Assembly: GCA_040390045.1 (NCBI GenBank) | Contig: JAZJZC010000001.1 | Coordinates: forward strand, 108,005-172,004 | Origin: Patescibacteria group bacterium | GTDB lineage: Bacteria; Patescibacteriota; Minisyncoccia; Phycocordibacterales; SIBU01 | DNA: 64,000 nt | Direction: 5' to 3' | Part shown: positions 1,368-47,192 of the stretch, piece after piece | Position numbering within the stretch: the first letter of the stretch is position 1 | Layout of the letters: every line of letters begins with the position of its first letter | The notes under the pieces: model-generated | Database searches by the model: none | What the model was told of the DNA's origin: nothing | Seen by the model: the letters and a program-made list of their open reading frames with translations, nothing else | Translations under genes and position numbers: made by a program

Positions 1368-1943
1368 TTACTTCAAACCAAAATTTTTACGAATTTCTGT
1401 ATCATTCTCTATTGAATCTACGATCATGTACAACACTGCCTTCCCTATCTTAAAATCCGCCTTGAGCATGGTTATAAAATCTTCGCAATCGTAGGGGTAC
1501 ACCCAAACGCTTTGTTGAAGCTTAATGAATCCGATATTTGATAAAGTTTTTCTTAAAAGATCGCGCGTCTTTCTGTTACCTTCTCGTATATCAAAAATCA
1601 CTACGCGCCATTTCTTGTCCCAACGTTTTGGTTTCATGATCCTAAAATTATGCAGTTCAAAGTGACGAAGAATACTTTGACCTTTAGGAGAGAGCTTTAG
1701 AAAGCCGTGAGCGTCATAGAACAACAGACCTTTCTCCACGAGACGCTTCCGTGAGTTATGAATTATTTCAAGCTGTCTTGCACTTTTAATTATCCCTAAC
1801 TTCTTGAGTGACTGGAGAACATTTGGTGCCAAGAGAGCAATCGCGAGTATCCCCGCAGAAGCAACTGTCTGCAAAATAATTTCCTGCAATTGATGTTTAC
1901 GCGCTCGCTTTCTCGATTCAACTTCCATGTTTCCCATATACAT
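1368..1943 (-). CDS. PaaX-family-like transcriptional regulator (N-terminal wHTH, C-terminal PaaX_C-like domain).
   Basis: The C-terminal segment WDKKWRVVIFDIREGNRKTRDLLRKTLSNIGFIKLQQSVWVYPYD matches the PaaX C-terminal pattern (W-G-W-x-VvfdiPE...R..LR..L...GFg.L..svWv.P) as I recall it. The N-terminal region resembles a wHTH. The annotated start overlaps repeat R2, so the true start may be Met3 or Met6. Confidence 0.5.
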   Translation of the reverse strand: MYMGNMEVESRKRARKHQLQEIILQTVASAGILAIALLAPNVLQSLKKLGIIKSARQLEIIHNSRKRLVEKGLLFYDAHGFLKLSPKGQSILRHFELHNFRIMKPKRWDKKWRVVIFDIREGNRKTRDLLRKTLSNIGFIKLQQSVWVYPYDCEDFITMLKADFKIGKAVLYMIVDSIENDTEIRKNFGLK

Positions 1944-2409: not shown

Positions 2410-3948
2410 TTAGAAGATGCTCAGTAACTTTGATCCGAAGCTAACCATTTTCTGGCTCAAGGTTACAGTGGCGGCAGCCTTTACAACTGGCTTAGCTTGA
2501 GATGCCTTGAGAGCCTTGCCTCCCCCTCCAGTCTGAGGCAAGCCAGGATAAGTCTGAACAGGAGCTTGAACCGTCGGAGTAATTATTGGCGCTGGTACAG
2601 AATAGCTCGGTGAGCTCAACGAAGGAAGTACAATTGTGGGTGATGCTTGATATGTTGGACCAGCGAGCGATCGGCCAACGAACGTTGGACTAGAATCATA
2701 GGTTGGAGAACTTAGGGTATTCCCCGCTGTACCTTCTGTTGCGGCGTAGGTTGGTGAGCTCAAATTTGAACCAGCGTTACTTCCACTTGTATCATAATTT
2801 GGAGAACTTAATGAAGCACCGTTAATACCAGCTGCGGCAACATAACTTGGTGAACTTAAGGTAGCACCGTTATTACTTGCCGTAGTGTATGTGGCAGAGG
2901 ACAAGCTTCCACCATTAGAATTTTCATTTGTAGTATATGTTGCGGAACTCAAAGTGCCGCCGACAGTTGCTGTCGCAATATAGGTTGCGCCAGACAAAGT
3001 GGCGCCGTTGTTGTTTGATGCACTGTAGGTTGGGGAAGAGAGGTTGTTACCGTTAGTACTTGCAGAAGTTGTATAGGTTGCTCCAGAAAGAGTCTGACCA
3101 GAATTGCCTGGGTTGGCAACGTATGTAGCAGAGCTCAAAGTAACCCCGTTAGGGTTATTAGTCGAAGTGTAGGTCGGTGAGGAAAGATTTGTACCATTTA
3201 CGTTTGAATTTGCAACGTAGGTAGCCGAACTCAAGTTGGTACCGTTGACATTGCCTGTCGCGGTATACGTAGGAGAAGCTAAGTTGTTACCAGAGTTACT
3301 TCCTGAAGTTGTGTATGATGGAGAACTAAGGTTGGTACCGGTATTACTTCCTGAAGTACTGTAGGTCGGAGAAGCAAGATTGCTCCCAGAATTATTTCCA
3401 TTAGCAGTATAGGTAGCCGAACTCAAGGTTGTGCCGGTGGTGTTGTTTGTCGAGGTGTAGTTTGGTGAAGATAAATTAGTTCCGGAGTTACTTGAGTTAG
3501 AAACATACGTAGCTGAACTTAGAGTAGGGCCGGCAGGATTATTTGTTGCGTAGTAATTTGGTGAAGATAAGTTTGAACCGCTATTATTGGCCGATGTTGC
3601 ATACACAGGAGAAGTCAAAATATTTCCACCACTAGTTACTGTTGTTACGTACGTAACTGAAGATACAGTAGAACCATTCACGTTATTTGTAGCTGTATAG
3701 TTGGGAGAAGCTAAATTCTTACCAGTATTGTAAGAAGTTGTTGTATACCCTGGTGAAGCAAGACTGCCACCACCAGTATTGGTGTTCGCGACATAATTTG
3801 CAGCGGAACGTGAAGCGCCAGAAATATTGCTATTAGCAACATAACTTGGAGCGCTTAAAGAAGCACAGGCGCAATCAGCCTTACTTACTGCTGGTAAGAA
3901 AGCTATAAAAAGTATTGAAAAACCGATATTTATAAGGTTATTTTTCAT
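2410..3948 (-). CDS. Secreted tandem-repeat surface protein (about 27 repeats of a 16-aa unit G-x-N-L-S-S-P-T-Y-T-x-T-x-N-x-x) with a C-terminal LPQTG-like motif.
   Basis: N-terminal signal peptide MKNNLINIGFSILFIAFLPAVSKA. The 48-bp DNA tandem repeats are visible across about 2650-3800. The C-terminus reads YPGLPQTGGGGK, followed by a weakly hydrophobic basic tail. Confidence 0.6.
   Translation of the reverse strand: MKNNLINIGFSILFIAFLPAVSKADCACASLSAPSYVANSNISGASRSAANYVANTNTGGGSLASPGYTTTSYNTGKNLASPNYTATNNVNGSTVSSVTYVTTVTSGGNILTSPVYATSANNSGSNLSSPNYYATNNPAGPTLSSATYVSNSSNSGTNLSSPNYTSTNNTTGTTLSSATYTANGNNSGSNLASPTYSTSGSNTGTNLSSPSYTTSGSNSGNNLASPTYTATGNVNGTNLSSATYVANSNVNGTNLSSPTYTSTNNPNGVTLSSATYVANPGNSGQTLSGATYTTSASTNGNNLSSPTYSASNNNGATLSGATYIATATVGGTLSSATYTTNENSNGGSLSSATYTTASNNGATLSSPSYVAAAGINGASLSSPNYDTSGSNAGSNLSSPTYAATEGTAGNTLSSPTYDSSPTFVGRSLAGPTYQASPTIVLPSLSSPSYSVPAPIITPTVQAPVQTYPGLPQTGGGGKALKASQAKPVVKAAATVTLSQKMVSFGSKLLSIF
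2650..3800. repeat. In-frame 48-bp tandem repeats inside the surface-protein gene.
   Basis: The protein shows reiterated NLSSPTYT / TLSSATYV units throughout, and the nucleotide repeats can be seen directly. Confidence 0.6.
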
Positions 3949-4128
3949 AATTTTGTTGATTACTTTGGCGTGGAAAGTGAGGTTTTAGGCTCAATTTTTC
4001 ACCCCTGAATCATAACAAACATTATAAATAAAGTCAAGGGGTATACTTGACATATCGAAACCGTGTGATAAACTGCGGTGAGCGTTCGGTTGGGCTAATT
4101 CCCTACTGAACATGACGGTTCAACGCAG

Positions 4129-4929
4129 TTGCACATTACACATATCTCTATGAAAAATCTGATCCTGAAGCTGGCGTTCAGCTTCCTCGCCCTCACCGCA
4201 ACCTTCACCAGCGTCCATGCGGGCTTCCGAGCTCCAGTCTGGAATGACCGATGCTACACCTGTCACGGCGGCACGCCAAGCATCTGGCCCGGAGCGCCGG
4301 GGAGTGGTTGTGGAGGCCTCGCGTACGCGATCGCCTGCGGGTTCGTCAAACCCGTCACAGCGCCTCCGGCATGCTCTAACTGCGCCGTGGTTACGGTCTG
4401 CGATCCCCCACTATCGGCACCGGTCTATTCGCCGGCTGGAGGACCGGATTGCGCCCCATCGTTATCGGCGCCAGTCTATTCACCGGCAGGTGGAGTAATC
4501 TGTTACCCCTCGTTGTCGGCTCCGGTCTACAGCGCACAGACAAATGTCTGCTGTGGCGAGCCACTGTCCTCGCCGACATACACTGCGGATACAAACACCT
4601 GCTGTGGAGGGTCATTATCAGCACCGGTGTACACCGCCAACGTGGTTCCGTGCGCGGTGGTTGTGACTCCCCCGCCACCTCAAGCCAAGCGGCCGGTTTT
4701 GGGCCTAGTATTTGACTACACCGGTCAATACATCCAGGTCAAGATCTCCTTGAAAAACGGAGACCCGAATGCGAAGTATTCGCTCGAGGCGGCGGCGGTC
4801 ACTGGAGGACAATGGGGAGTGGTTCCCGGCCAGAAAATATCGGCCAACGGAAATGGGGTCGGAGAGGTGAAGTTCCTCTACAACTCCACCTTTCCCTTCG
4901 CTCTCTTCAGGGCGAGATTGGATCAGTGA
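4129..4929 (+). CDS. Secreted Cys-rich repeat protein (3x PSLSAPVYSPAGG; CC pairs; one CYTCH motif).
   Basis: Signal peptide MKNLILKLAFSFLALTATFTSVHA. The repeated S-L-S-A-P-V-Y motifs resemble the LSSPTY units of the divergent neighbour gene. GC-rich (about 60%). Confidence 0.5.
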   Translation: MHITHISMKNLILKLAFSFLALTATFTSVHAGFRAPVWNDRCYTCHGGTPSIWPGAPGSGCGGLAYAIACGFVKPVTAPPACSNCAVVTVCDPPLSAPVYSPAGGPDCAPSLSAPVYSPAGGVICYPSLSAPVYSAQTNVCCGEPLSSPTYTADTNTCCGGSLSAPVYTANVVPCAVVVTPPPPQAKRPVLGLVFDYTGQYIQVKISLKNGDPNAKYSLEAAAVTGGQWGVVPGQKISANGNGVGEVKFLYNSTFPFALFRARLDQ

Positions 4930-4949
4930 GGTCAGTGAAGATTTAATTA

Positions 4950-4992
4950 CCCGAGGTTTGAGACACCACAATGTCTCGAACCTCGGTTTTTT
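4950..4992 (+). terminator. Rho-independent terminator.
   Basis: cccgaggtttgagaca...tgtctcgaacctcgg followed by tttttt. Confidence 0.55.
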
Positions 4993-5010
4993 CTTTGTAA
5001 AATTAATGCA

Positions 5011-5045
5011 GAAAACACCGCCGCGCAAAGCGCGGCGGTGTTTTC
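5011..5045. terminator. Bidirectional terminator hairpin.
   Basis: aaaacaccgccgcgcaaagcgcggcggtgtttt. It is A/T-flanked on both sides and lies between convergent genes. Confidence 0.55.
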
Positions 5046-5052
5046 ACTACAC

Positions 5053-5301
5053 TTACAAAATATTAACCGTGCCCAGAATTATCTCTTTGAGCGCGTAGGC
5101 GGAAATCATAACAACCATTCCCACCACGCCCCAGATCATCTGACGAGTGCCAGTTGATCGAGCTTCGGCGTCATCGGCGGCGCCAACAAAGTTTTGGACC
5201 CCCCAAATAAAGACAAGTGTGGCCAGAGCAAACATCAACAAAATCAGCGGCTTCAGAATGAAGTCGCTGATTTTGTTTACTAATTCATTAACAGCAGTCA
5301 T
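5053..5301 (-). CDS. Pilin-like two-helix hairpin protein (TrbC/VirB2-like), core domain only.
   Basis: TM1-IWGVQNFVGAADDAEARSTGTRQMIWGVVGMVVM-TM2 topology. It shares the [IY]-x-G-x-F-x(3)-AG-[DG]-E-E-x(4)-AK-x(3)-I-W-G motif with the six upstream paralogs. Confidence 0.5.
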   Translation of the reverse strand: MTAVNELVNKISDFILKPLILLMFALATLVFIWGVQNFVGAADDAEARSTGTRQMIWGVVGMVVMISAYALKEIILGTVNIL

Positions 5302-5344
5302 AGATAATATAATTTCTGCGTATAATAAATTATTTCAAACTAGA

Positions 5345-5761
5345 TTAAACGCAAGGTGGAATAGTACAGGTAATTGTTGGCAAACCGTTCTGCGTTGCTG
5401 CTCTGTTTACTGTTGTCTGTCCAGCATTACTTAGTCCAAAAGTATTGATGAGGATTCCAACAAGACCCCAAACAGAGGCCATGAGGAAAATACCGATGAT
5501 TCCCCAAATAATAAAGCCCTTAGCGCTAGCTCGAGCCTCTTCATCTCCAGCTGAACTGATGAATCCGAAAATACCGTAGATAACAACGAAAACAGCAAGA
5601 CCGAACAAGAACGGAATAATGGTGTTAATAACAAGGGTCAGTCTCTGCAAAAAAGTAGTTAAACTAGTTACAGGGGCAGAAACTTGGGGAGCAGCTGCTG
5701 CTTGCGCGAACGCAAGAACCGGAAGAAGAAACGATGCTGAAGCGACGAGAAACTTTTTCAT
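5345..5761 (-). CDS. Pilin-like hairpin protein, paralog 6. It has a signal peptide, a variable region and a conserved hairpin.
   Basis: The C-terminal domain reads VIYGIFGFISSAGDEEARASAKGFIIWGIIGIFLMASVWGL. The C-terminal tail has a Cys pair (TCTIPPC). Confidence 0.5.
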   Translation of the reverse strand: MKKFLVASASFLLPVLAFAQAAAAPQVSAPVTSLTTFLQRLTLVINTIIPFLFGLAVFVVIYGIFGFISSAGDEEARASAKGFIIWGIIGIFLMASVWGLVGILINTFGLSNAGQTTVNRAATQNGLPTITCTIPPCV

Positions 5762-6125
5762 TATATTTTAATTGATTAATTGAAAACTAATAATTTGTAT
5801 TGATACCGAGCGACCTTTATTATTTTTTATGAATGGTTACATTATATATTGTCCATTACAGATAACAAGTGGGGTGTGGATAGTGGCGCTCGGATTGTTC
5901 TTTTCGCTAAAGCGCTTCGTAATCCTCGAAAATCAAGTCGGTGGTCTTTACGTAAAACAAAAAACTCGCTCGAGGACTCGCTCAAACAATTTCATTTTCC
6001 TAACCATCTCGTGATTTTTTACGGCTACTACGCTAACCCGCTCAAAGAACTATCCTCACTTGGATACCGAGATAGGAATCTCGGTAGGAAAACAGGGCTG
6101 GAAATTCAAATAGAGACTAATTCAG

Positions 6126-6998
6126 CTACTTGCAACCAGCTGGTGTAGGAATGGCTAAACAACGAAATATCTGAGTAGTGCCTTGAGGTGTGTTGTCAAA
6201 ATTAAAGGTTTTAACCAAAATATTAATCATGCCCCAAATGGAGAGCATGAGAAATATGAAGATAACACCCCAAATTATAAAATTCCTCGCATCGGCTCGT
6301 TTTTCCTCATTTTGAGCTTCTCGAATATAATTGAAAATACCAAGAATGACAACAAAGACAGCAATACCAATAAGAAATCCAACAATGTTGGGGCCGATGA
6401 TATTGAGCCTTGCGATGAGTTCAACAATGGTTTTTGGCGGTGTGGTCGGCAAAGGAGTATTGTTGGGATATACAGCCGTCACAATACCGTTTGACCTGTC
6501 GAGGTTGAAAGTATTGTAGAGAATGTTTATAAGACCCCAGACTGAGAGCATGCAAAAAATACCAACAATCCCCCACACAATAAAATCTCGGGCTTCTTTA
6601 CGTTTTTCTTCGTCAGCCGCCTGAGAAACATAACCGAAAATGCCGTAAATAATCAAAAATACAGCGAGACCGATCAAAAACGGTATGAAAAGGTTTATGA
6701 TACCGATGAATCTATTGAGGAGAAGGTCGATGGTATTGATAGTGCCAGTCTGCAACGCTCCGGTGACAGCGCTATACCGACTATAGCCAGCTGGGCAATT
6801 CCCGTTAGCACTAGGCTGACTACTAGAGCCATCAGCAGAAACACAAATATCGGCCGCAAAAGCTGGACTGACATTCACAAAAAAACTAAGGAGCAAGGGG
6901 AAAATCAGGAGTCCCAAAAGCACCTGTGACAGTCGTAATTTTAATAATGTAATTTTCATGAGAATAATTCTGTAATCAAAAATTTCATTGAGCACCAA
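6126..6998 (-). CDS. Pilin-like protein with two tandem hairpin domains (internal duplication).
   Basis: Two copies of ...IYGIFGYVSQAADEEKRKEARDFIVWGIVGIF... and ...ILGIFNYIREAQNEEKRADARNFIIWGVIFIF... within one ORF. There are Cys pairs near both termini. Confidence 0.5.
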   Translation of the reverse strand: MVLNEIFDYRIILMKITLLKLRLSQVLLGLLIFPLLLSFFVNVSPAFAADICVSADGSSSQPSANGNCPAGYSRYSAVTGALQTGTINTIDLLLNRFIGIINLFIPFLIGLAVFLIIYGIFGYVSQAADEEKRKEARDFIVWGIVGIFCMLSVWGLINILYNTFNLDRSNGIVTAVYPNNTPLPTTPPKTIVELIARLNIIGPNIVGFLIGIAVFVVILGIFNYIREAQNEEKRADARNFIIWGVIFIFLMLSIWGMINILVKTFNFDNTPQGTTQIFRCLAIPTPAGCK

Positions 6999-7524
6999 CC
7001 AAAGGAATCACAGGGTAACGGGAATGAACGGTCGTATTTGTGTTATCGATCCCTAAGGTGTTGTACAAAATATTTACGAGCCCCCAAACAGAGAGCATGA
7101 GAACGACACCAATAACGCCCCACATGATAAAGTCACGAGCTTGCTTGCGAGCTTCTTCGTCCGCGGCTTGAGAAATGTAAGTGAAAATGCCATAAATAAT
7201 GACGAAGACTCCTAGACCGACGAGGAATGGGATGAGAAGGTTTATGACACCAATAGCTCGGTTTAGAAGACCAGCGATACTGGTGATGGCTCCGCCCCCA
7301 CCACCCGAACAATTTCCGAGCGCTGCATAAGCTTGGTTTAGAGCTGTGCCATTATTACCTTCCCTAGTCATATTGTGAGAACTCAACCATGCATTAACTT
7401 GATCATCAGTACATGAAGCAAAAACTGGACTAACACTTATTGAAAAACTTGAAACTAGAAGCAAACTAAAAACACTTAAAAGAAAGACTCTAGTAAATTT
7501 TGATTTTAATGATAGTTTTTTCAT
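6985..7524 (-). CDS. Pilin-like hairpin protein, paralog 4.
   Basis: Start taken at the ATG giving MKKLSLKS (signal peptide). The track's longer ORF uses a GTG inside an intergenic repeat. The domain reads IIYGIFTYISQAADEEARKQARDFIMWGVIGVVLM. Confidence 0.5.
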   Translation of the reverse strand: MKKLSLKSKFTRVFLLSVFSLLLVSSFSISVSPVFASCTDDQVNAWLSSHNMTREGNNGTALNQAYAALGNCSGGGGGAITSIAGLLNRAIGVINLLIPFLVGLGVFVIIYGIFTYISQAADEEARKQARDFIMWGVIGVVLMLSVWGLVNILYNTLGIDNTNTTVHSRYPVIPLVGAQ

Positions 7525-7540
7525 GGGGTAATTATATAAT

Positions 7541-7636
7541 GAATTCATGGAACATGGAACACAAATCACAGAACACTGGGGGATAAAATTAATCTCTTTT
7601 TTATGATCCGTGTTCCATGTTTTGTGTTCTGTGACC
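7541..7636. repeat. Intergenic heptad-repeat inverted-arm element (CAYGGAA type).
   Basis: Left arm CATGGAA CATGGAA CACAAAT CACAGAA CAC at 7546-7576. Core tgggggataaaattaatctcttttttatg. Right arm cgtgttccatgttttgtgttctgtga at 7609-7634, inverted. Confidence 0.65.
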
Positions 7637-7989
7637 TAAAAGGTGTCCACTCCCAAATAGGTATTGGCCAAAAGTCTGGCTAGACCCCAGAAAGAGAAAA
7701 TAATAAACATCCCCAGAAGACCGTAAATAATGAGTTGTTTGGCTTTACCCAAACGTTCTTCGTCTCCACCTGCCCCGCTGTATTTTAAAATTCCGGTGAG
7801 CAATCCGAAAAAACCGAGACCGGCAACAAACATTGTAACGTCGCCTAAGATGTTTATAAAATTTAGAACAAATTCAGAAAAATTTCTAGACGGGGTCGCT
7901 GGCGTCGCGGCAACTGCGAGAAAAGGAAAGGTAGAAGACGAAATTATTATAGCCAAAGTTTTCGTATGTTTTCGTATTTTCGTAATCAT
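7636..7989 (-). CDS. Pilin-like hairpin protein, paralog 3.
   Basis: LKYSGAGGDEERLGKAKQLIIYGLLGMFIIFSFWGL. The N-terminal codons MITKIRKHTKT are encoded by TACGAAAAT repeats. Confidence 0.45.
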   Translation of the reverse strand: MITKIRKHTKTLAIIISSSTFPFLAVAATPATPSRNFSEFVLNFINILGDVTMFVAGLGFFGLLTGILKYSGAGGDEERLGKAKQLIIYGLLGMFIIFSFWGLARLLANTYLGVDTF

Positions 7990-8009
7990 TTAGTATGTTC
8001 GTATTACCG
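7958..8009. repeat. TACGAAAAT-family short dispersed repeat cluster.
   Basis: gttttcgtatgttttcgtattttcgtaatcatttagtatgttcgtatta. Confidence 0.55.
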
Positions 8010-8459
8010 TGTTGGACACGTGAGTCCTGCAGTACCGAGTTGTTGGATGGTGCCACAAATAATAGTGGAAATAACTTTAGCACCGAGTAGAACAGCGACA
8101 CCGATCACGGTCCACAAAAGTGCATTCTTGGCTTTACTTAATTTTTCTTCACTGCCTCCAGCCATAACCATCAGAAATCCAGCATAAATGAGAAAGAAAA
8201 TAGAGAGTAGAGCGGCAATCGGAAAAAGGGTATCGAGAAGTAATTTGATGAAAGCCTCGATAGAGTTAACGCTTCCAAGAGGATTGGTTATAATCGGGGC
8301 AATTTGTGATCCAGATCCACCTCCCGTGATCTGCGAGCCCTGAGCCAGAGCCGTAGTGGCTGAAAGCATTGCATATGTAACTCCTGTCAAAAACGCTAGA
8401 AAAATTTTAAATTTTTTAAATATCATTGAATATATTTGATTACTATTTTGGAGCTTCAT
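8004..8459 (-). CDS. Pilin-like hairpin protein, paralog 2.
   Basis: FFLIYAGFLMVMAGGSEEKLSKAKNALLWTVIGVAVLLGA. C-terminal Cys pair ICGTIQQLGTAGLTC. Confidence 0.5.
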   Translation of the reverse strand: MKLQNSNQIYSMIFKKFKIFLAFLTGVTYAMLSATTALAQGSQITGGGSGSQIAPIITNPLGSVNSIEAFIKLLLDTLFPIAALLSIFFLIYAGFLMVMAGGSEEKLSKAKNALLWTVIGVAVLLGAKVISTIICGTIQQLGTAGLTCPTR

Positions 8460-8485
8460 TAAAATGAATACGATTTGGAAAAATT

Positions 8486-8953
8486 TTATATTGGTTTTAA
8501 TGTACTCCTGCTTATAAACCCGGCATCAATTAACCCGGCGTCGATTGCATGGACAATAAGCCAGGCCGAAAGCATGATCAAAAACCCGACAAGCACTTTT
8601 CCAAAAATTTCTTTGGCATGCTCTATTTTACCCATTTCTCCTCCCGCTGTCATCATCAAAAATCCTGCCCAAGCAAAGGCGAGAGCAGAAACCGCTGCTC
8701 CAAGGACGATGAGGTAGTTAGCTATTTTATTGATGAGCGTAATAATGTGTTGAAATCCACAGGGATTCGAAACCGTACCTCCTACATATTTAACTCCACT
8801 TCCTGTTCCAAGGGTAGCCCCGTCAGGATAGACTTCTGTGCCACAGGGAATAAAATTTTGTACCGCTTGTCCAAAAACCAAAAAGGGTGCTGTAATCAAA
8901 AATATCGCCAAGAAAAACGAGAAGATGGCATTTTGATTTACAATTTTTGTCAT
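8486..8953 (-). CDS. Pilin-like hairpin protein, paralog 1.
   Basis: AFAWAGFLMMTAGGEMGKIEHAKEIFGKVLVGFLIMLSAW. The N-terminal variable region carries a Cys pair. Confidence 0.5.
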   Translation of the reverse strand: MTKIVNQNAIFSFFLAIFLITAPFLVFGQAVQNFIPCGTEVYPDGATLGTGSGVKYVGGTVSNPCGFQHIITLINKIANYLIVLGAAVSALAFAWAGFLMMTAGGEMGKIEHAKEIFGKVLVGFLIMLSAWLIVHAIDAGLIDAGFISRSTLKPI

Positions 8954-8964
8954 GAAAATTTTAT

Positions 8965-10230
8965 CTAGTTACGGAGAGACTTGCCAGCAATAGTAATTGC
9001 ATCTCCGACACCAGCTTCACCGCTTGTTATAGATTCTATCATATTTTGGAAAGCGGCCCGTGAATTTGAGGAGTTTGGATCAACCCAGGCTTTGGCGCGC
9101 AGTGCAGAATTATAAAAAATTGCTTGATATGGATCTTTCGGATCAGCAACAAGCATGGAGCGTCGAACTGGTGGAAGTCCAGTCCGTGAACTTAAAAGAT
9201 TGATGGTGTCGGGAGCTGTCATGGCAATTAGCAACGAAACTGCACTTGCCTGGTTTTGGGAACTTTTAAGAACTGCTAAACCTTGCATTTTTCCAAAGGT
9301 CGTCAATATTGAAGCGCCTTTTGGTTGAGGGAAATAGGTTACATCAAAATTGAGATTGGAGTTTCGATCACGAATTTTAGACATCTCCGAAGCGAACCCA
9401 AAATAAAAGGCTAAATCTCCTGAGGCAAACATGTCGCGAGAATTGATCAAAGCCCTATTCCAAGAGTAGTCGGGTTTTAATGGATTAGCAAAATCAGTAT
9501 AAAAATTAACAGCTCCAATAGTAGCTAAGGTTGGCGAAAGAGCGCCCATTAAGCCATCTGGACCGTACTGAGTAATGGGGCTACCTGCCTGGAGCAAGAT
9601 GGCTGAAATTATTTCAAACGCATTTGTAATGTTTTTAAATTCCCCTAAAGCAACTCCGCTTTTCAGTATGTTTGAATTGGCATCCTTAACTGACAGTCGT
9701 GGAACGAGTGTAATAAATTGATCCCACGTTTTTGGAGGAAGGGATTCACCAATATTGGTCAAGGAATCTCGGTTCCAATACATGACGAGCGGATCTACTG
9801 TGAACGGTAACGCAACAACACCTTCGCTATCTATATACAACTCAGCCTCCTGAATAAAAGTGTCTTTGAAATCCCTCAGAGGCATTATGTTGTAGGAAAA
9901 TGGCAGAATTTTGTCTCTATATTTAATAATTTTATCCTGTGGGAGCAAAATTGCGTCAGGTCCTACCCCTGAAGCCAAAGCTTCGATCAAATCCTGGTCA
10001 AAAGCTGCTTCAATTTTTTGTATATACTCAATTTTATAACCATTAGTACCTAACGTTAAATTTGATACAGAGTCGTTGAAAGCGGCAGTGTCCATTGTTC
10101 CCCAAATAACAACAGTCACGCTGTTGACACTACCATTTTTTGCTTTCGTGAGAGCAAGAACGATCACACCGCCGACTAAGGCGATAATAAAGATAGCGGT
10201 GAGTACGACTTGGAATGGGCTGGCTTTCAT
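8965..10230 (-). CDS. Membrane-anchored extracellular solute-binding protein-like (ABC transporter SBP family 1-like).
   Basis: N-terminal TM anchor followed by a roughly 390-aa periplasmic-type domain. The overall pattern resembles sugar-binding SBPs; assigned by resemblance only. It lies immediately upstream of the pilin-like array on the same strand. Confidence 0.4.
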   Translation of the reverse strand: MKASPFQVVLTAIFIIALVGGVIVLALTKAKNGSVNSVTVVIWGTMDTAAFNDSVSNLTLGTNGYKIEYIQKIEAAFDQDLIEALASGVGPDAILLPQDKIIKYRDKILPFSYNIMPLRDFKDTFIQEAELYIDSEGVVALPFTVDPLVMYWNRDSLTNIGESLPPKTWDQFITLVPRLSVKDANSNILKSGVALGEFKNITNAFEIISAILLQAGSPITQYGPDGLMGALSPTLATIGAVNFYTDFANPLKPDYSWNRALINSRDMFASGDLAFYFGFASEMSKIRDRNSNLNFDVTYFPQPKGASILTTFGKMQGLAVLKSSQNQASAVSLLIAMTAPDTINLLSSRTGLPPVRRSMLVADPKDPYQAIFYNSALRAKAWVDPNSSNSRAAFQNMIESITSGEAGVGDAITIAGKSLRN

Positions 10231-10234
10231 AATG

Positions 10235-10278
10235 ATACGAAATTATTATACGAAAATACGAAATGTATACGAAAATTA
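10235..10278. repeat. TACGAAAAT-family repeat cluster in the upstream region of the SBP gene.
   Basis: atacgaaattattatacgaaaatacgaaatgtatacgaaaat. Confidence 0.55.
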
Positions 10279-10333
10279 TGTTCCACTGTTATAATTTTTA
10301 TACTAGCTCCAACGTCCATGTAAATATAGCATA

Positions 10334-10858
10334 TTATCGTATAAAAATTAAGCCGTAGTGGTGCTCCCCTGCTGAAATTTCCCGCTGGAAAACAAATCCG
10401 GCCTTTTCAAAAAGCGCCCGAGCCATGTCAGAGGAAAAAACGTGTTCCTTTTGCGGGCCCATGCCACCAAACGACTCCTTCCAATCAACAACGAGGACAC
10501 GACCTTTTGGTTTTAAAATTCTTTTTACTTCAAATGGGAAATCGGTTTTGTGTTCTAACTGAAAAAGCGTATTGCATACCAACACGTCGTCCACAGAAGA
10601 ATCTGCCAATCGTGTACCACCAAGCTTTTCGACATTACCCAAAAGCGCTTCTACATTTGTGAGACTACTTCGTCGCGCCTCGTTTTTAAGTTTTTCCAAT
10701 AAGTCTTTTAAAACGTCCACAGCGTAGACCTTGCCTTTGTCGCCTACTGCTCGTGCGGCAGCCATAGTATAAAAACCGGCACCCGAGCCGAGGTCGGCTA
10801 CGGAAGTTCCGGGTTCAAGTCTCAATTGCTCTATATTTTTTTGTGGGTCAGAGAACAA
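10334..10858 (-). CDS. Class I SAM-dependent methyltransferase.
   Basis: Motif I VADLGSGAGFYT and motif II-like VYAVDV. Confidence 0.65.
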   Translation of the reverse strand: MFSDPQKNIEQLRLEPGTSVADLGSGAGFYTMAAARAVGDKGKVYAVDVLKDLLEKLKNEARRSSLTNVEALLGNVEKLGGTRLADSSVDDVLVCNTLFQLEHKTDFPFEVKRILKPKGRVLVVDWKESFGGMGPQKEHVFSSDMARALFEKAGFVFQREISAGEHHYGLIFIR

Positions 10859-10941: not shown

Positions 10942-11658
10942 TTATTTGCCGATTTTAAGTTCACCAAACAACCGGTACATCCCGATAAGTTCTTTCGTCA
11001 CAATAGCAGGGATTTTTTTCAGATAAAAAATATTGGTTTTTCCGCTCTGGCGCCTAAAATGATTAACTGGCACCTCGATTATTTTTGCGCCCGCAAGGTT
11101 TACTCGTATCACAAACTCAGCATTAAAAAACTGAAGATACGATACTTTTTGAGCAACGTCGTCCAAAAAACTTTTTTTAATAAGTCTAAAACCAGTATCC
11201 ATGTCCTCAAAAGAAACCTTGAATATCCTGCGTAACAAAAAATTATATCCTTTTGAGAGTACTGATCTTAGCGCACCGTCCTTTCTGTCGATTTTCTTTC
11301 CTAGAATAACATCATAGCGATCAGCGTACTCCCATAATTTCCAGAAATCTTTTGGGTCAAATTGGCTATCAGAATCAACGAGAAAAACCCACTCATACCG
11401 AGGGTATTTCAAAGAATCTTTAATGGCTTGAAGATACCCCTTTCTCTTTTCACTTAAGTATACTCGTATCGATAGTTCACTCTCCAAATCTTTAAGTATC
11501 CGTTTGGTGTCATCCGTACTTCCATCCTCCACGGCAATTATTTCAAAATTAAGTTTACCTTTTAGTTCGTTGTAATATGAATGAATTGTTTTAGCAATTA
11601 TGTACTCTTCATTGTATACAGGAAAAACAAATGATACGCTTCTGGTTTGTAAATTCAT
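10942..11658 (-). CDS. Family 2 glycosyltransferase (Dpm1/GtrB-like).
   Basis: IIAVEDGSTDDT (DxD region) and VDSDSQ, a typical GT-A fold. Confidence 0.7.
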   Translation of the reverse strand: MNLQTRSVSFVFPVYNEEYIIAKTIHSYYNELKGKLNFEIIAVEDGSTDDTKRILKDLESELSIRVYLSEKRKGYLQAIKDSLKYPRYEWVFLVDSDSQFDPKDFWKLWEYADRYDVILGKKIDRKDGALRSVLSKGYNFLLRRIFKVSFEDMDTGFRLIKKSFLDDVAQKVSYLQFFNAEFVIRVNLAGAKIIEVPVNHFRRQSGKTNIFYLKKIPAIVTKELIGMYRLFGELKIGK

Positions 11659-11748
11659 AATTCCGCATTATATCAGATATTTTATTCGAGTGAATAGCGA
11701 TAAAAATCTTGGAAATTAATTAAATGCTATAATTATTTTGCAATTCAA

Positions 11749-13218
11749 ATGAACGCTGTAAAACAAATTTTAACGAACCGAAAAATCATACTAAAGTGTG
11801 TTATCTGGTTTCTTATTATTGCATCGAGTGTCGCCATCTATGAACCATATCTCTCAAGCGGTTGGTCTTCGAACGAATCCCCGCGTTTTGAAGGCTGGGC
11901 GTTTTTTCATTACTATTTGGGAGCAAAATATTTTGGGGAAGTGGGTTATTTCGATTTCTACCAATGCGCTATAGAAGCTGGAGGAAAAACTGTTGGGTGG
12001 TCAGATGAGACCATAACTCGAGATTTGCGAACCTACAATCTCCTGCCCTCAAAAGACGTTCCTGCTTGTCATCGTGAACGATTTTCGGAAGCCCGTTGGC
12101 TAGAATATAAAAATGATGTAGCTTGGATTATCAAAGAAGGTGACCAGCAAAATCATCTTCCAAATCTAGACCTAGTTACCGACAAGGGTTTCAACCCAAC
12201 ACCTTTTTGGTCTGTGGTGGCAGGAGATCTTGCAAATGCATTTCCTTCCCAAAAAGGCTTGGCCTTAACCTTACTCATGATGGTAGACTTTTTGGTCTTT
12301 GTCTTTTCGATTGCATTCATACGCTGGAAGGAAGGAGACACACTGGCAATACTAACGGCCTTACTAACTCTTTTTTACTTCGGCGCATTTCATTCTCTTG
12401 GTGGACAATTTTTGCAGTATATTTGGTTTTTATGCATTATCGTTAGTACTGTTTTATGGCGCGCGAAAAAACCTTTCTCAAGTGGTGTATTAATGGGACT
12501 TGCGATAGGGATTCGGTCATTTCCGTTATTTTTTGCTGCGCCAATGTTTTGTGTCGCTTTTTATTCGCTCATCAAAAAGCAAAAAAATATACCTGTAATA
12601 ATTTTTTGCGCTGGTTGCATAACAGCAATGCTCATGTGTTTTATTATTGGAAGCACGTCAACAAGAGGAGTGAGCGCCTGGCAGGAATGGAGCGAGAAGA
12701 TATCCGTCCACGAGAAATATTTGCGTGGAGAAATTTTTGAGATTGGACTTCCGAATTTGATAAGTACGATTGCTTCAGAAGAAAATGGAAATGCGTCAAA
12801 TTACCTTGAAGATTTTCCACATACGCTTCTACGTATTGCACGTTTTGAAAAATTTATTTTCTTATATTACGCTCTGGCCGGAACTCTTCTTGCTTTGTGG
12901 GCGTGGTTGCTTTGGAAAAATAGATCTCTGGAGGTTTTTGGATATGGGTTTATACCTCTCTATGTGCTTACCTCTCTTTCCCCCATTTACTATCTTTCTC
13001 TAGCACTTTTACCCTGCATGTTTGGGGGGGCACCAATACGAATTCGTAACTATGCCGTTGGCGGGACTTTATTACTTATGGTGGCTCACCTTCCTTTTCT
13101 GCTCAGTGGTTATATAACCTTCAATTATTACGATCATCTTATCAGTGGCATATTGATTTTCCTCTTTTTCATCGGAATGGTATATGTATGGCACAAGGAA
13201 GAATCATTGGCGCCTTAA
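11749..13218 (+). CDS. Polytopic membrane protein, possible GT-C-type glycosyltransferase.
   Basis: Twelve or more predicted TM segments with a large loop. It lies in a glycosylation-type cluster. No specific motif recognised. Confidence 0.3.
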   Translation: MNAVKQILTNRKIILKCVIWFLIIASSVAIYEPYLSSGWSSNESPRFEGWAFFHYYLGAKYFGEVGYFDFYQCAIEAGGKTVGWSDETITRDLRTYNLLPSKDVPACHRERFSEARWLEYKNDVAWIIKEGDQQNHLPNLDLVTDKGFNPTPFWSVVAGDLANAFPSQKGLALTLLMMVDFLVFVFSIAFIRWKEGDTLAILTALLTLFYFGAFHSLGGQFLQYIWFLCIIVSTVLWRAKKPFSSGVLMGLAIGIRSFPLFFAAPMFCVAFYSLIKKQKNIPVIIFCAGCITAMLMCFIIGSTSTRGVSAWQEWSEKISVHEKYLRGEIFEIGLPNLISTIASEENGNASNYLEDFPHTLLRIARFEKFIFLYYALAGTLLALWAWLLWKNRSLEVFGYGFIPLYVLTSLSPIYYLSLALLPCMFGGAPIRIRNYAVGGTLLLMVAHLPFLLSGYITFNYYDHLISGILIFLFFIGMVYVWHKEESLAP

Positions 13219-14154
13219 AACAACGTCGATATATTTTGTCTTGACAAAAGTTTCTTGAATCGCATCCTCGAAAGGCGTTTGAGTGACACCAAACACCTTT
13301 TTTGTATCAACACCTTTGAAATCGTCCCCTGCCACTAATGCTGTGAGCTGCTGAACAGTAAATGGTGGTTTTTGAACAAACAACGCGCATATCTGCAACA
13401 TAAAACCAAAAAATACAATTGGGATGTGTATAATTTTTGTAGATAATTTTTTGGCGCGAATAATTGCAAAAATAATATCTTGGTAATCGATGCGAGTGTC
13501 ACCGACGATATCAAACACCTGATTATTAAACTCGGGCTTCAGAGACCGCACAAGACATCGACAAAAATCTTTAACATACAGTGGCTGTCGCAAAAACTTT
13601 CCGTTGCCAGGAATAGGAAAAATCGGAGTTTTTTCCATAAAACGTGACAACCAACCTAAGTGTTTTGGGTCAAATGGGCCAAACATCAACGTTGGCCGTA
13701 ACACCGTATATCGGAGACCGCTTCTAAGCACTCCTGCTTCTTGAATTTTTTTGGCGTTTGTGTAATCATCGGTTGCAACAGAATTGACCACCGAAGAACT
13801 GACATGAATGAGACGCGGGACACTAAATTTTCTGCATGCATTGAGCACACTGTATGTGGTGTCAATCGTGTTACGTTTAAATTGCTCCGAATGCGTACTT
13901 GTAATTTGTGCCTGCAACTGAATAACTACGTCTACACCCTCAAGCGTCCGCTCCCAAAAATCAGAAGAAATAGCTAAATCTGCCTCAACAACATCCACTT
14001 CCGGATGTAACCTGTGGAGTATCGACAAATTATAGGCACTCTTATCTATAACAACAAAACGAGTGTATCTTTCTGATTTTAATTCGAAGAGAAGATTTTG
14101 CCCAACAAATCCTGCCCCTCCAGTTATCGCAATTTTTATATTTTTATTGTTCAT
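13204..14154 (-). CDS. NAD-dependent epimerase/dehydratase (SDR family).
   Basis: MNNKNIKIAITGGAGFVGQNL Rossmann motif. Start chosen at that Met; the track's longer ORF overlaps the next gene. Confidence 0.65.
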   Translation of the reverse strand: MNNKNIKIAITGGAGFVGQNLLFELKSERYTRFVVIDKSAYNLSILHRLHPEVDVVEADLAISSDFWERTLEGVDVVIQLQAQITSTHSEQFKRNTIDTTYSVLNACRKFSVPRLIHVSSSVVNSVATDDYTNAKKIQEAGVLRSGLRYTVLRPTLMFGPFDPKHLGWLSRFMEKTPIFPIPGNGKFLRQPLYVKDFCRCLVRSLKPEFNNQVFDIVGDTRIDYQDIIFAIIRAKKLSTKIIHIPIVFFGFMLQICALFVQKPPFTVQQLTALVAGDDFKGVDTKKVFGVTQTPFEDAIQETFVKTKYIDVVLRRQ

Positions 14155-14164
14155 ACTAGTGAGG

Positions 14165-15448
14165 CTACTTCCGATAGATACTTTGTATATTTGGATATAG
14201 TCCGTCAAGCCAAATTCGTTGGTAGAATATCTTAGAGAAAAAAACAAAAAAATATAAAAATAATAAAAAATTTATTATTTCATCTATATACAATAAGTTT
14301 TGTGACCATCGACTGAGCCATACGCTAAAGATAACCCCAAGCAAAACGGCCGAGGCGGAAATACTGTATTTTCCAGCATCTTTGATCCAAATTAAAAGTT
14401 GTGGCACTAAAAAAATTAAAAAAATTAATCGATAGTCATAATTTCTACCAAGGATATAGGTACCAAGATATATTCCTGCCCCAACAAGAAAACCGGCACT
14501 AACAACTCTTCCACGTTGGGAATTTTCAAATTCCACTGCGGTTCCAAAATAGCTGCGTCTCCTAAATATAGAAAAAATCAAAACCAGCAGTGATGATAGG
14601 GTTAAAAATTCGATAAAAAAACCTACTTTTGATGTTAGAACATGCTCAATGATATCGAAGCTGACGCTAATTCCGTACGTAAAATAATTACCGATAGTTG
14701 GAAGAACTTGAACTATACGCTGAATGTCATTAAAGATTACGAATAGGTACAACAAGAAAGTGAAAAAAACACTTATAAAAATAAGCGTTCCTCTTTTTCC
14801 TTTCTCCTTCAACACAACAACAAGCGCCATTATTGGATATAATTTTAATACAGCAGCTAAAAACAAAACGACGTAACCAAAAACATTAGTTTTCTTCTGT
14901 ACGCTACTTATAGAAAACGTAGCCAAGGCCAAAAGAGAAAATATAATGAGATCATTATTACCCCGTTCAACCGCAAGCAAAACAGACGGGGAAAGCAAAA
15001 TTAAAAGATACACAATCACTTCCGGTATATTTATAAAGCCAATTATAAAATAAGCACTGGTAAAAAAAAGTATTCCCGAAAGGATTCCTAAAAAGACTGT
15101 GTGCGACTGATCTATCTGGAGTGGGGCCAGCGCCATCCATATGCGAGGATAATCAAATGGCCGCTTCCACGGATCGCATGGATTTGCGATGAGTACATCA
15201 TGTCCAGAACGATTGCACTCAAGAGCGCTCGTAGTTTGTCTTGTGTCTGCAAACAACGAACCGTTAGCTAATTCACCCGGTTTTTGCCAAAACAAAATAT
15301 AATACGGCATGAAAAAACTTGAGACAAACACCGTCAAAAAATAAAGGCCCGTGAGAAAAAATAATATCTTGCGACAATCAAATGACTGATTTTTTGCCAC
15401 CCGAGAAATACTACTACTGTTGAGAAACTGAAAAGGTGGTGTGGTCAC
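14165..15448 (-). CDS. Polytopic membrane protein (DUF2029/GT87-like?).
   Basis: Many TM helices. Lies in the envelope-glycosylation cluster. No catalytic motif recognised. Confidence 0.3.
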   Translation of the reverse strand: MTTPPFQFLNSSSISRVAKNQSFDCRKILFFLTGLYFLTVFVSSFFMPYYILFWQKPGELANGSLFADTRQTTSALECNRSGHDVLIANPCDPWKRPFDYPRIWMALAPLQIDQSHTVFLGILSGILFFTSAYFIIGFINIPEVIVYLLILLSPSVLLAVERGNNDLIIFSLLALATFSISSVQKKTNVFGYVVLFLAAVLKLYPIMALVVVLKEKGKRGTLIFISVFFTFLLYLFVIFNDIQRIVQVLPTIGNYFTYGISVSFDIIEHVLTSKVGFFIEFLTLSSLLVLIFSIFRRRSYFGTAVEFENSQRGRVVSAGFLVGAGIYLGTYILGRNYDYRLIFLIFLVPQLLIWIKDAGKYSISASAVLLGVIFSVWLSRWSQNLLYIDEIINFLLFLYFFVFFSKIFYQRIWLDGLYPNIQSIYRK

Positions 15449-21902: not shown

Positions 21903-22532
21903 TTATAGAATAATTTCGTCACCTTTTCCGATCAATTCCACCTTCCCATCTCGCATCAAAATCCCTTGCTCATCGGTAAGAATTTTTACCGGAAGTGGGG
22001 TTTGAGAAATTTTTTCCTTCAAAATCTGATCATACTCTGGTTTGTAATGAACCGTCATAAGAAATGGAACCAAACTCATGGCGGTCAAATCGGTAAGATT
22101 GTAATGACTGTATTTATCCTGATGTTTCCAAAGCGCCATTTCTATTGTTGGACAGGCAACATAACTGCCGGCACTTGCTCCCATGTAAATTAAACCTTTC
22201 GGCAACAACTCTTTTATAATTTTTTCAAAACCACTCTGCCTAATTGACTTCATGAGTAAAAACGTATTACCACCTTCAACGTACACTAATTCAGTTTTTT
22301 CTAAAACTTTTTTTAAATCATCCCCTGTCGTGTGATCCAAATCTATTTCCGTGCAATCATAGTTGTGTTCTTTGAAAAACTTTCGATTCCTTTCAAAGTA
22401 GGCTGTATCAGAAACTCCTTTCGAAGCAGTTGTAATGTGAACCATCTTGAAAGTATTGAAAGGCCGCCCCAAAACTTCAGGAGGGTTGTTCATCAAAAAC
22501 CGAGCGGTGGAAAGCAATAAAATTGTACTCAT
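21903..22532 (-). CDS. Peptidase S51 (dipeptidase E-like).
   Basis: VYVEGGNTFLL motif and a Ser-nucleophile region GASAGS. Confidence 0.65.
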   Translation of the reverse strand: MSTILLLSTARFLMNNPPEVLGRPFNTFKMVHITTASKGVSDTAYFERNRKFFKEHNYDCTEIDLDHTTGDDLKKVLEKTELVYVEGGNTFLLMKSIRQSGFEKIIKELLPKGLIYMGASAGSYVACPTIEMALWKHQDKYSHYNLTDLTAMSLVPFLMTVHYKPEYDQILKEKISQTPLPVKILTDEQGILMRDGKVELIGKGDEIIL

Positions 22533-22631: not shown

Positions 22632-23297
22632 TTATAATTTACTTTGATTGAAAATAAGATACTTCCCTTCACTAACAACCTCAACTTCCTCATCAACAAC
22701 TTTAAGTGCGGACTCATCGTCAAGAGCATATATTGGTTCTTTAATTTTTTCTGCAACCTTAGTGAGATTTTCTTTTGTATTCTTTGGTGAATCTGGAGAA
22801 TGTAAATGAGGGTAAAAATAAAAAGGAACCAAACCAAGTGCGTCATTGTCATCATACCCAGTAAGTTCTTTATAGACCGAACGTTTGTTACTCATCAGAA
22901 GTGTTGGTGCAGTAACAATACTGCCGGCGCTTATCCCAGCATATACCTTAGTTTTTAAGAGTTCAGGCAAAAGCTCCTTCAGGCCAGATTTTTTCATCCA
23001 ATACATCAAGTGAGCTGAAGTTCCTCCTGAGAAAAACAAAACATTAGCCTTCTCAAGTTTTGGTAACCAAATATCTTGAGGTAATGCAGAAATATCTACA
23101 ATATCAATAAATTTGAGACCAAGATTTTTGAGATTGGATAAATCATCTATAAACCAACTTTTGTCGCCCCTACTGACGTTCATTGCAGTAGGAATAAAAG
23201 CGAGGTGAATCTCACTCGCTGGCTTTCCGACTAAATCAATAAAGGCCTCGGCAATCGACTTGTTGCTAATACCGTTTGAAGTAAGAAATAATTTCAT
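22632..23297 (-). CDS. Peptidase S51 (dipeptidase E-like) paralog.
   Basis: FFSGGTSAHLMYWM and GISAGS. Tandem paralog of 21903..22532. Confidence 0.65.
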   Translation of the reverse strand: MKLFLTSNGISNKSIAEAFIDLVGKPASEIHLAFIPTAMNVSRGDKSWFIDDLSNLKNLGLKFIDIVDISALPQDIWLPKLEKANVLFFSGGTSAHLMYWMKKSGLKELLPELLKTKVYAGISAGSIVTAPTLLMSNKRSVYKELTGYDDNDALGLVPFYFYPHLHSPDSPKNTKENLTKVAEKIKEPIYALDDESALKVVDEEVEVVSEGKYLIFNQSKL

Positions 23298-42113: not shown

Positions 42114-42188
42114 TCCCCGGTGGCGCAGTGGTAGCGCAGTCGCCTGTTAAGCGATTGGTCGTAGGTTCGAATCCTACCCGGGGAGCCA
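42114..42188 (+). tRNA. tRNA-Asn (anticodon GTT), CCA encoded.
   Basis: Cloverleaf drawn by hand. Acceptor tccccgg/ccgggga, D-arm gcgc-agtggta-gcgc, anticodon stem gtcgc/gcgat with loop cTGTTaa, T-arm gtagg-ttcgaat-cctac, discriminator G, CCA. Confidence 0.85.
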
Positions 42189-43685: not shown

Positions 43686-43686
43686 A

Positions 43687-44454: not shown

Positions 44455-44455
44455 A

Positions 44456-45328: not shown

Positions 45329-45498
45329 TTCTTAAGAAAGGAATTGAACTCCTCTTTATCAATACGAAACTCTTTGCCAATCTTGTAGGCTTGTAACCGA
45401 CCTGCTTTTATATAGCGGTAAATTGTCATAATGTTTACCTCTAGTATCGTTGCCAGGTCTTCCGCTTTATAAAATGGTTTGTCTTTTTTTGTGTCCAT
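45313..45498 (-). CDS. Excisionase/AlpA-like HTH DNA-binding protein.
   Basis: 61 aa. LATILEVNIMTIYRYIKAGRLQAYKIGKEFRI is an excisionase-family HTH. Confidence 0.6.
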   Translation of the reverse strand: MDTKKDKPFYKAEDLATILEVNIMTIYRYIKAGRLQAYKIGKEFRIDKEEFNSFLKKCKKI

Positions 45499-45535
45499 AA
45501 TTACCTAATTATTATACTTTACTTTGCTTTACATA

Positions 45536-47107: not shown

Positions 47108-47168
47108 GTTATACAGTGACCAAGCGCGCCATACTCTGTTATCCAGGATTAAAGTCGGTTATCCACAG
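47108..47168. promoter_or_regulatory. Cluster of DnaA-box-like 9-mers.
   Basis: TGTTATACA at 47108, TGTTATCCA at 47137 and an exact TTATCCACA at 47159-47167. They lie in the divergent region between the Rep-like gene and the AbiEii gene. Confidence 0.4.
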
Positions 47169-47192
47169 AAAGAAAAAACCAGGCCCAAAAAA

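Follow-up and report, generated by a model that had tools for sequence, protein, structure and literature searches.

Seven predicted VirB2-like pilin genes and an orphan solute-binding-fold gene in a conserved chromosomal operon of Paceibacteria

Within a 64,000-nucleotide (nt) stretch of the genome of a Patescibacteria group bacterium (contig JAZJZC010000001.1; the whole stretch is referred to below as the window), seven co-oriented pilin-type genes of the minus strand (5053-8953) directly follow a gene whose product has the fold of a solute-binding protein (SBP; 8965-10230), as read from the open reading frame (ORF) listing and from the reverse strand. Comparison of these genes with protein families and with related loci indicates that the seven encode VirB2-like pilins of PF18895, a family that is specific to the apparatus of Patescibacteria related to type IV secretion systems (T4SSs), and that these genes and the upstream SBP gene belong to a single conserved operon on the chromosome of Paceibacteria. 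With some reserve, we favour the explanation that these proteins are pilins of this T4SS-related apparatus, inserted into the membrane with both termini outward and assembled by a distantly encoded VirB4 machine into one heteromeric filament or conduit, with the SBP serving as a receptor or adhesin.

The minus-strand ORFs at 8486-8953, 8004-8459, 7636-7989, 6985-7569, 6126-6998, 5345-5761, and 5053-5301 lie exactly where a preliminary description of this DNA had placed seven consecutive genes sharing a hairpin module. The double-module gene most likely starts at 6959 (277 amino acids [aa]; NCBI and Logan gene calls) and the gene upstream of it at 7524 (179 aa; independent gene call), so that the apparent overlap between the two disappears. 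Numbered from the SBP gene onward, paralog 1 (8486-8953; 155 aa) starts 11 nt past the SBP stop and combines a predicted signal peptide, an N-terminal Cys-Cys loop (C37...C65), and a hairpin, and paralog 2 (8004-8459; 151 aa, or 140 aa if translation begins at the second ATG) consists of a predicted signal peptide, a hairpin, and a Cys-containing tail. Paralog 3 (7636-7989; 117 aa) has a short N-terminal extension, paralog 4 (6985-7524) carries a Cys pair in this extension, paralog 5 (6126-6959) contains two fused hairpin modules, paralog 6 (5345-5761; 138 aa) ends in a Cys-loop tail, and paralog 7 (5053-5301; 82 aa) is a hairpin without a leader. The operon is closed by a terminator-type hairpin on the same strand (5012-5044) with a 15-bp GC-rich stem and a folding free energy of −33.5 kcal/mol (z = −7.8 versus shuffled sequences).

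Between paralogs 5 and 6 lies a noncoding gap of 364 nt (5762-6125), which is longer than the 125 to 250 nt found at the same place in three related loci (our L003, L007, and L008). On the minus strand it contains a promoter-like site (5841-5868) and a weak terminator-like site (5966-5989), both of which are consensus matches only. The gap has no Rfam match, Rfam over 4900-10400 gave nothing meaningful, and the two plus-strand ORFs in the gap (99 aa and 61 aa) match no Pfam or NCBIfam family. Another observation was an imperfect inverted repeat between pilin genes 3 and 4 (7551-7621), with 23-nt arms that are 83% complementary and 25 nt apart, which could be a transcript-processing or attenuation element.

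The seven genes contain eight hairpin modules, which align over approximately 78 aa as transmembrane helix 1, a charged loop with the pattern A-[AG]-[GD]-[DE]-E-x(4)-A-[KR], the motif I-W-G, and transmembrane helix 2. A hydropathy scan showed an N-terminal hydrophobic segment plus two transmembrane helices in six of the seven genes, except that the gene at 6126-6998 has four such helices, which together with its two PF18895 stretches bears out the earlier statement that it contains the module twice; at 5053-5301 only the two-helix hairpin is present, again as previously described. In the sequences of the six leader-bearing paralogs, the hydrophobic segment is followed by an AxA-like site. Cys pairs occur N-terminally in the products of 8486-8953, 6985-7524, and 6126-6959 and as C-terminal loops in those of 8004-8459 (C-x12-C), 6126-6959 (C-x8-C), and 5345-5761 (C-x4-C); the loops had thus been correctly noted in the preliminary description, but not their spacing, which had been given as C-x(5-8)-C. 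The N- and C-terminal segments are probably extracytoplasmic, for which the conserved Cys pairs in them argue.

All seven genes match the Pfam profile PF18895 (T4SS_pilin) with E values between 5e-10 and 8e-6, and the shared module is therefore not a product of chance. Six of them score 29.7 to 39.8 bits, above the gathering cutoff of 26.6 bits, among them 8486-8953 (E = 2.9e-8), 8004-8459 (9.6e-10), 6985-7524 (7e-7), 5345-5761 (4.9e-10), and 5053-5301 (2.2e-7). The seventh, 7636-7989, falls 0.4 bit short of the cutoff (26.2 bits, E = 8.4e-6); it is recovered by a hidden Markov model (HMM) trained on the locus, and its orthologs are conserved. On these profile scores, membership of the seven genes in PF18895 can be regarded as established, and the earlier idea of TrbC/VirB2-type, T4SS pilin-like hairpins holds; the essential array of Southlakia epibionticum is of the same family. 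All seven genes also match NF045849, a pilin-like family of Mycoplasma integrative and conjugative elements (ICEs), with E values from 2.9e-15 to 2.9e-3. The cutoff of this family (40 bits) is passed only by 6126-6998, whose 55.7 bits are the sum of two modules, and the remaining genes score 17 to 38.5 bits, the highest being paralog 4.

To place the array in its genomic context, 86 related loci were gathered via the SBP, and their six-frame ORFs were scanned with an HMM trained on the window modules. At least two pilin genes follow the SBP gene on the same strand in 57 of the 58 loci that have at least 3.5 kb of downstream sequence, with a mode of five to six genes per locus and a range of one to eight. 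The SBP stop and the first pilin start are a median of 2 nt apart, and in 53 of these 58 loci the distance is at most 30 nt. Directly upstream of the SBP gene and on the same strand, 69 of 75 loci have a homolog of the class I SAM-dependent methyltransferase (MTase) that is the conserved first gene of the unit (10334-10858, minus strand, 174 aa), frequently with a 4-nt overlap, so that the SBP gene is flanked by the MTase gene and the first pilin gene in the window and in more than 90% of the loci. The MTase matches Pfam Methyltransf_31/11/25 and no specific NCBIfam family at its cutoff, and its gene is probably part of the same operon as the SBP and pilin genes. In 41 of 50 loci, gyrA is found upstream at a distance of no more than 2.5 kb, and a pattern scan confirmed at least 577 SBP homologs among species-representative genomes. 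Given this linkage across loci and the number of homologs, the MTase-SBP-pilin unit is a widespread core operon of Paceibacteria-type genomes. Other recurrent neighbours are IF-2, HisRS, S1, ClpB, a Band-7 protein, and a cysteine desulfurase-like protein, and housekeeping genes surround the array in the window as well. Non-pilin genes interspersed in related arrays gave no Pfam or NCBIfam match.

The second conserved component, the 421-aa SBP-fold protein, passes the family cutoffs of both SBP_bac_8 (PF13416; E = 6e-17, 62.7 bits) and SBP_bac_1 (PF01547; E = 8e-15, 56 bits). Its AlphaFold2 model (predicted local distance difference test [pLDDT], 85) begins with a hydrophobic helix (residues 5 to 32), and a Foldseek search of this model against the PDB placed oligosaccharide-binding proteins and MalE on top, with a TM-score of 0.74 at approximately 17% identity. 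In a profile search of PDB sequences, the best match was the mannooligosaccharide-binding protein MBP1 (4r9f; E = 2e-14). More than 1,900 homologs were found, the nearest relatives being in Taylorbacteria and Paceibacterota, and the window accordingly comes from a Taylorbacteria-like genome of the Paceibacteria type. The invariant residues of the SBP alignment (W43, D92, D146, W152, R154, W169, E206, W257, E282, D296, R356, and W382) would be compatible with a conserved ligand site. The preliminary description had called this protein a lipoprotein. Lipoprotein anchoring is ruled out, because its first 40 residues contain no Cys and hence no lipobox. Neither a permease nor an ATPase partner was found among the scanned window ORFs. 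Immediately ahead of the hydrophobic helix, at the very N terminus, the whole family shares Phe6 without exception, and Gln7 is kept in more than 90% of its members; Gly21, within the helix, is invariant as well. Such conservation is unusual for a simple signal anchor.

We then asked how the individual paralogs relate to those of other genomes by identifying the best match of each window module in 54 other arrays. Paralog 1 found its best match at array position 1 in 54/54 arrays, paralog 2 at position 2 in 50/54, and the bare-hairpin paralog 7 at the last position in 52/54, while paralogs 3 to 6 matched middle positions of no fixed rank. The first, second, and last paralogs thus form three positional classes of ancient orthologs and are not freely diversified copies, and paralogs 3 to 6 make up a middle class. 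Within the window, modules 4, 5a, 5b, and 6 (5a and 5b being those of the double-module gene) are mutually 47 to 72% identical, compared with 19 to 36% for all other pairs; the hairpin of paralog 4 is 72% identical to module 5a, and paralog 6 is 58 to 62% identical to modules 4 and 5a. Paralog 3 has orthologs in L003, L007, and L008 with hairpins 60 to 71% identical. The double-module fusion is kept in the clade of the window (21 further homologs of 216 to 311 aa), and a three-module gene is present in a further locus (L051).

Features outside the hairpin follow the classes as well. The N-terminal Cys pair of class 1 (PCG...CG[FW]) is kept in the window, L007, and L008, and the C-terminal CGT...C loop of class 2 in the window, L003, L007, and L008; L003 shows no class 1 gene. 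In the last class, 12 or fewer residues precede the domain in 31 of 55 arrays. The last-class orthologs of L007 and L008 have a signal peptide, and the mature N terminus predicted for them (ITxVNxLVN) corresponds to the first residues of paralog 7 (MTAVNELVN). Among genomes whose SBPs are 61 to 65% identical, orthologous hairpins share 55 to 75% of their residues, whereas the N-terminal extensions and C-terminal tails, most of which are 6 to 38 residues long, are 3 to 33% identical and variable in length. The exception among the termini is the Cys-loop tail of class 2, with 62 to 85% identity between orthologs. The window array holds no long identical repeats or invertible segments, the best direct repeat being 233 nt at 71% identity, and a recombination-based switching cassette is ruled out for want of suitable repeats. 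Taken together, the positional orthology, the identity pattern, the fusions, the Cys pairs, and the absence of switching repeats suggest a fixed heteromeric set rather than a cassette of interchangeable variants; as judged from these comparisons, such a set would be described by three specialized single-copy subunits and an expandable middle class with variable exposed ends.

A profile of the eight window modules retrieved 45,414 cluster representatives at an E value of ≤1e-3. Outside the window, we also observed poly-pilins, that is, single polypeptides with 2 to 11 tandem hairpin modules (3 to 11 in P0236, P0253, P0162, P0164, and P0161), examples of which are a protein of 1,147 aa with 11 modules and one of 820 aa with nine.

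How might these components work together? In the explanation that we favour, the pilins would enter the membrane in the orientation of VirB2 and TraA, the charged loop facing inward and the two termini outward; six paralogs would take the route of Sec and signal peptidase, and the leaderless last paralog would insert without a signal peptide. A VirB4-containing machine encoded elsewhere in the genome would then assemble them into one heteromeric extracellular filament or conduit, in which the three conserved single-copy classes might occupy special positions (initiation, tip, or base) and the duplicating, fusing middle class would provide the bulk, its variable termini decorating the outer surface. 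We prefer a heteromer to the alternatives because of the positional orthology in 54/54, 50/54, and 52/54 arrays, the fused two- and three-module genes, and the polypeptides with up to 11 modules. The cotranslated, membrane-anchored SBP of the oligosaccharide type would be a partner of this structure; most likely, it would act as an adhesin or receptor that recognizes a glycan or solute from the host and not as part of an ABC importer. The evidence that VirB4 is encoded at a distance is indirect: VirB4 is present in 2,417 of 3,035 Patescibacteria assemblies (80%) and VirB2-like genes occur away from virB4 in 813 of 1,948 assemblies (PMC12102498). Among the entries of Table S1 of the same study considered here, two genomes that bear the operon, Parcubacteria C7867-006 and Zambryskibacteria RIFOXYC1_FULL_39_10 (our L058 and L072), are VirB4 positive.

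However, a number of observations weigh against this explanation. VirB4, VirB3/PrgI, VirB6, TrsD, and the coupling protein are all absent from the scans of the 64-kb window, which bears out the earlier remark that neither VirB4 nor VirD4 is encoded in it, and proximity to virB4 (approximately 20 genes) is not seen, as there is none in the 55 kb to the right or the ~5 kb to the left of the array. In 81 related loci, the recurrent ORFs of at least 400 aa located up to 10 kb from the operon include neither a VirB4-like ATPase nor any other of these T4SS genes, and in part 14 of Table S1 of PMC12102498, 9 of 23 Taylorbacteria drafts are scored VirB4 negative. The link to experimentally solved pilins is weak, as all scores against the TrbC profile PF04956 are under its gathering cutoff of 27.9 bits, with subthreshold matches for three genes (8004-8459, 22.2 bits, E = 1.6e-4; 8486-8953, 18.8 bits, E = 1.9e-3; 5053-5301, 14.2 bits). 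An hhalign comparison of 316 hairpin modules with eight annotated plasmid VirB2/TrbC genes, each located between a VirB1-like gene and VirB3, aligned 64 columns in register with an E value of 5e-4 but a probability of only 31%; homology of the hairpins to classical VirB2 is no more than plausible. A profile of 51 modules found only designed helical proteins among all PDB sequences (E ≥ 0.015). The AlphaFold2 model of the double pilin shows helical hairpins at residues 77-112/117-151 and 178-213/218-251, and in a Foldseek search against the PDB it had no hit at an E value of ≤0.001, from which no conclusion is drawn because the model is of medium confidence (pLDDT, 66; predicted template modelling score, 0.35). 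Furthermore, what ties the SBP to the pilins is gene order only, none of the PF18895 proteins has been observed to form a pilus, and the role of the Patescibacterial T4SS has been described as completely unknown.

Alternatively, the hairpins might oligomerize into a ring or tube in the membrane, independently of any T4SS, and the orphan SBP might pass on to it an oligosaccharide of the host, or another solute, that it has bound, which would be a new device for SBP-dependent uptake or sensing without an ABC permease. Such a complex would account for an SBP that has no permease or ATPase neighbour and whose translation is coupled to that of pilin 1 in almost every locus, for the consistent separation of the operon from virB4, and for the VirB4-negative Taylorbacteria drafts, and chains of up to 11 hairpins would suit a fixed membrane assembly better than subunit-wise extraction into a pilus. 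We nevertheless consider it unlikely. All functional and contextual data on PF18895 point to T4SS clusters, VirB4 is found in the two operon-bearing genomes named above, incompleteness of metagenome-assembled genomes is a possible cause of its absence from the drafts, the operon lacks an energizing component, and a transporter of this kind is without precedent. It is tempting to go one step further, to what we would call a distinctly speculative and doubtful scenario, in which the VirB2-derived hairpins form an organelle of their own, uncoupled from virB4 and independent of ABC permeases, that is capped or fed by the orphan SBP and serves for uptake or as a conduit to the host. Nucleation and termination of the polymer, itself built from the variable middle pilins, would then fall to the fixed first, second, and last ones, and the poly-pilins would represent the same architecture as one chain.

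It is very improbable that the hairpin is a mere membrane anchor for the display of short, variable, disulfide-stabilized surface peptides and forms no polymer. The variable and Cys-containing parts are indeed the N- and C-terminal segments, and the fold searches gave no specific pilin match, yet most extensions have the modest length given above, the bare last paralog displays nothing and still has a last-position match in 52/54 arrays, the 55 to 75% identity of hairpin and loop motif between orthologs goes well beyond the needs of a generic anchor, and PF18895 is a T4SS pilin family. Finally, a cassette for antigenic or host-range variation, with the paralogs as alternative major pilins used singly, is an idea that has been proposed for Bartonella and Anaplasma VirB2 and raised for Patescibacteria in PMC12102498 and that draws on the low identity of most pairs, the hypervariable exposed termini, and the promoter-like site inside the array, but we give it hardly any credence, as the first, second, and last paralogs keep their places as positional orthologs in ~54 genomes, which fits distinct roles, repeats for switching are lacking, and the fused modules show coassembly.

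The pilin array itself is of a kind already known in Patescibacteria, and the core idea is not new, because VirB2-like arrays of this phylum have been published. A search of 3,035 assemblies with PF18895 and PF04956 yielded 441 VirB2 arrays of 2 to 11 genes in 383 assemblies, with a mean identity of 25% (Quinonero-Coronel et al. 2025, PMC12102498). In Southlakia epibionticum, the PF18895 genes SEML1_0014-0019 lie inside a T4SS cluster that has no SBP and are essential by transposon sequencing (Wang et al. 2023), and a 2025 review names VirB2-like arrays as a unique feature of these monoderm T4SSs. The window array, with seven genes where at least two adjacent PF18895 genes of low identity in a Patescibacterial genome define an array, resembles those of Southlakia epibionticum ML1 and Nanosynbacter lyticus TM7x in family, in its tandem small genes (2 to 11 at approximately 25% identity), and in phylum. 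It differs from the published arrays in location, since these lie inside or beside a virB4 cluster ("near virB4" ring in Fig. S9 of PMC12102498), whereas the window array is found beside gyrA and behind an MTase and an SBP gene; moreover, the published arrays come mostly from Microgenomatia and Saccharimonadia, whereas the operon of the window is Paceibacteria-wide. We found no mention of the SBP-pilin linkage in the main texts of the T4SS papers, including PMC12102498, or by full-text search for the combination; term searches of the T4SS literature did not return the positional classes or the leaderless last pilin, and no mention of fused pilin modules was found in PMC12102498. To a known class of arrays, the operon thus apparently adds its MTase-SBP-pilin architecture, the positional classes, a terminal pilin without a leader, and fused modules.

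Likeness to more distant systems is partial. With VirB2, TrbC, and TraA (PF04956), the window proteins share a small form with a predicted leader, two hydrophobic helices, a short charged loop, termini both predicted outside, and a weak, in-register profile similarity; they differ in scoring under the PF04956 cutoff, in a loop that is approximately 7 residues longer, and in their monoderm host. Compared with the eight canonical VirB2 loci, the array lacks adjacent VirB1, VirB3, and VirB4 genes and has multiple paralogs and fused modules. The best-scoring curated family after PF18895, the Mycoplasma NF045849 (Mbov_0395/MMCAP2_0565), resembles the window proteins as a small hairpin protein (80 aa) from an MPF-FATA-type T4SS of monoderms, but is encoded by a single gene inside an ICE rather than by a chromosomal array. 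Tandem amplification and divergence of VirB2 genes are also known from Bartonella and Anaplasma, an analogy cited in PMC12102498; these are diderm pathogens with paralogs inside the virB locus that are thought to serve antigenic variation, whereas the window array shows three fixed positional classes and nothing that points to switching. The SBP, for its part, has the fold of the MalE-type ABC importer proteins (PF13416/PF01547) and passes their cutoffs, but differs from them in having no permease or ATPase genes and no lipobox, in being coupled to a pilin gene, and in sharing only ~17% identity with solved SBPs.

Several genes adjoining the operon are, in contrast to it, lineage-specific neighbours. 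A cluster of GT2, GT87, NAD-epimerase, and GT87 genes (10942-15448) between gyrA and the MTase gene has no homolog in the 81 other loci, where gyrA lies ~0.5 to 1.4 kb from the MTase gene, and therefore looks like a lineage-specific insertion; as part of the pilin system it is ruled out by its absence from all other loci. On the other side lie two genes for secreted repeat proteins, one of 512 aa (2410-3948, minus strand) with dozens of ~13-aa repeats of the LSSPTYT type and an LPQTG motif near the C terminus and one of 266 aa (4129-4929, plus strand) that is Cys rich with LSAPVYSPAGG repeats; neither has a Pfam or NCBIfam match or a homolog in the 81 related loci. The preliminary description had joined these genes with the array into a variable cell-surface locus, a view that cannot be upheld for the MTase-SBP-pilin unit, conserved as it is in 57 of 58 related genomes. 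Farther to the left, a 191-aa protein (1368-1943, minus strand) contains the PaaX central Cas2-like domain and recurs near the operon in a related locus (L001, at 3527-4102); no CRISPR or cas genes were seen in the 64-kb window.

The remainder of the window contains further features of note. One is a tRNA-Asn gene (42114-42188) that shares its last nucleotides with the end of the gene for a large serine recombinase (42174-43685). Next, up to 48650, come genes for a restriction enzyme of the EcoO109I type, an N6/N4 DNA methylase, and a protein with an AbiEii toxin domain, and the whole region (42114-48650) looks like an integrated defence island. The minimum of the cumulative GC skew (approximately 44000 to 46700), where gene orientation changes from mostly minus to mostly plus, coincides with this island; dnaA was not found among the scanned window ORFs. 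Two full-length MreB paralogs (26835-27899 and 31887-32900) are accompanied by MreC and PBP2, and two Peptidase_S51 paralogs are adjacent to each other (21903-22532 and 22632-23297), in a genome that is presumably very small.

Patescibacteria cannot make most of their building blocks and take them from their hosts. To our knowledge, no T4SS apart from their T4SS-like system with its VirB2-like pilins has been shown to be essential for the organism that carries it. Should the hairpins and the SBP form an organelle of their own, the pilin fold would be put to a new use here, and the organelle would be a candidate route of nutrient capture for ultrasmall epibionts. The pilin genes of Paceibacteria are organized unlike those of the Saccharibacteria studied to date, in a core operon with an orphan protein of a sugar-binding fold, with fixed classes and with fused subunits, and this organization offers testable handles in the ligand of the SBP, its binding to the pilins, and the role of each paralog.

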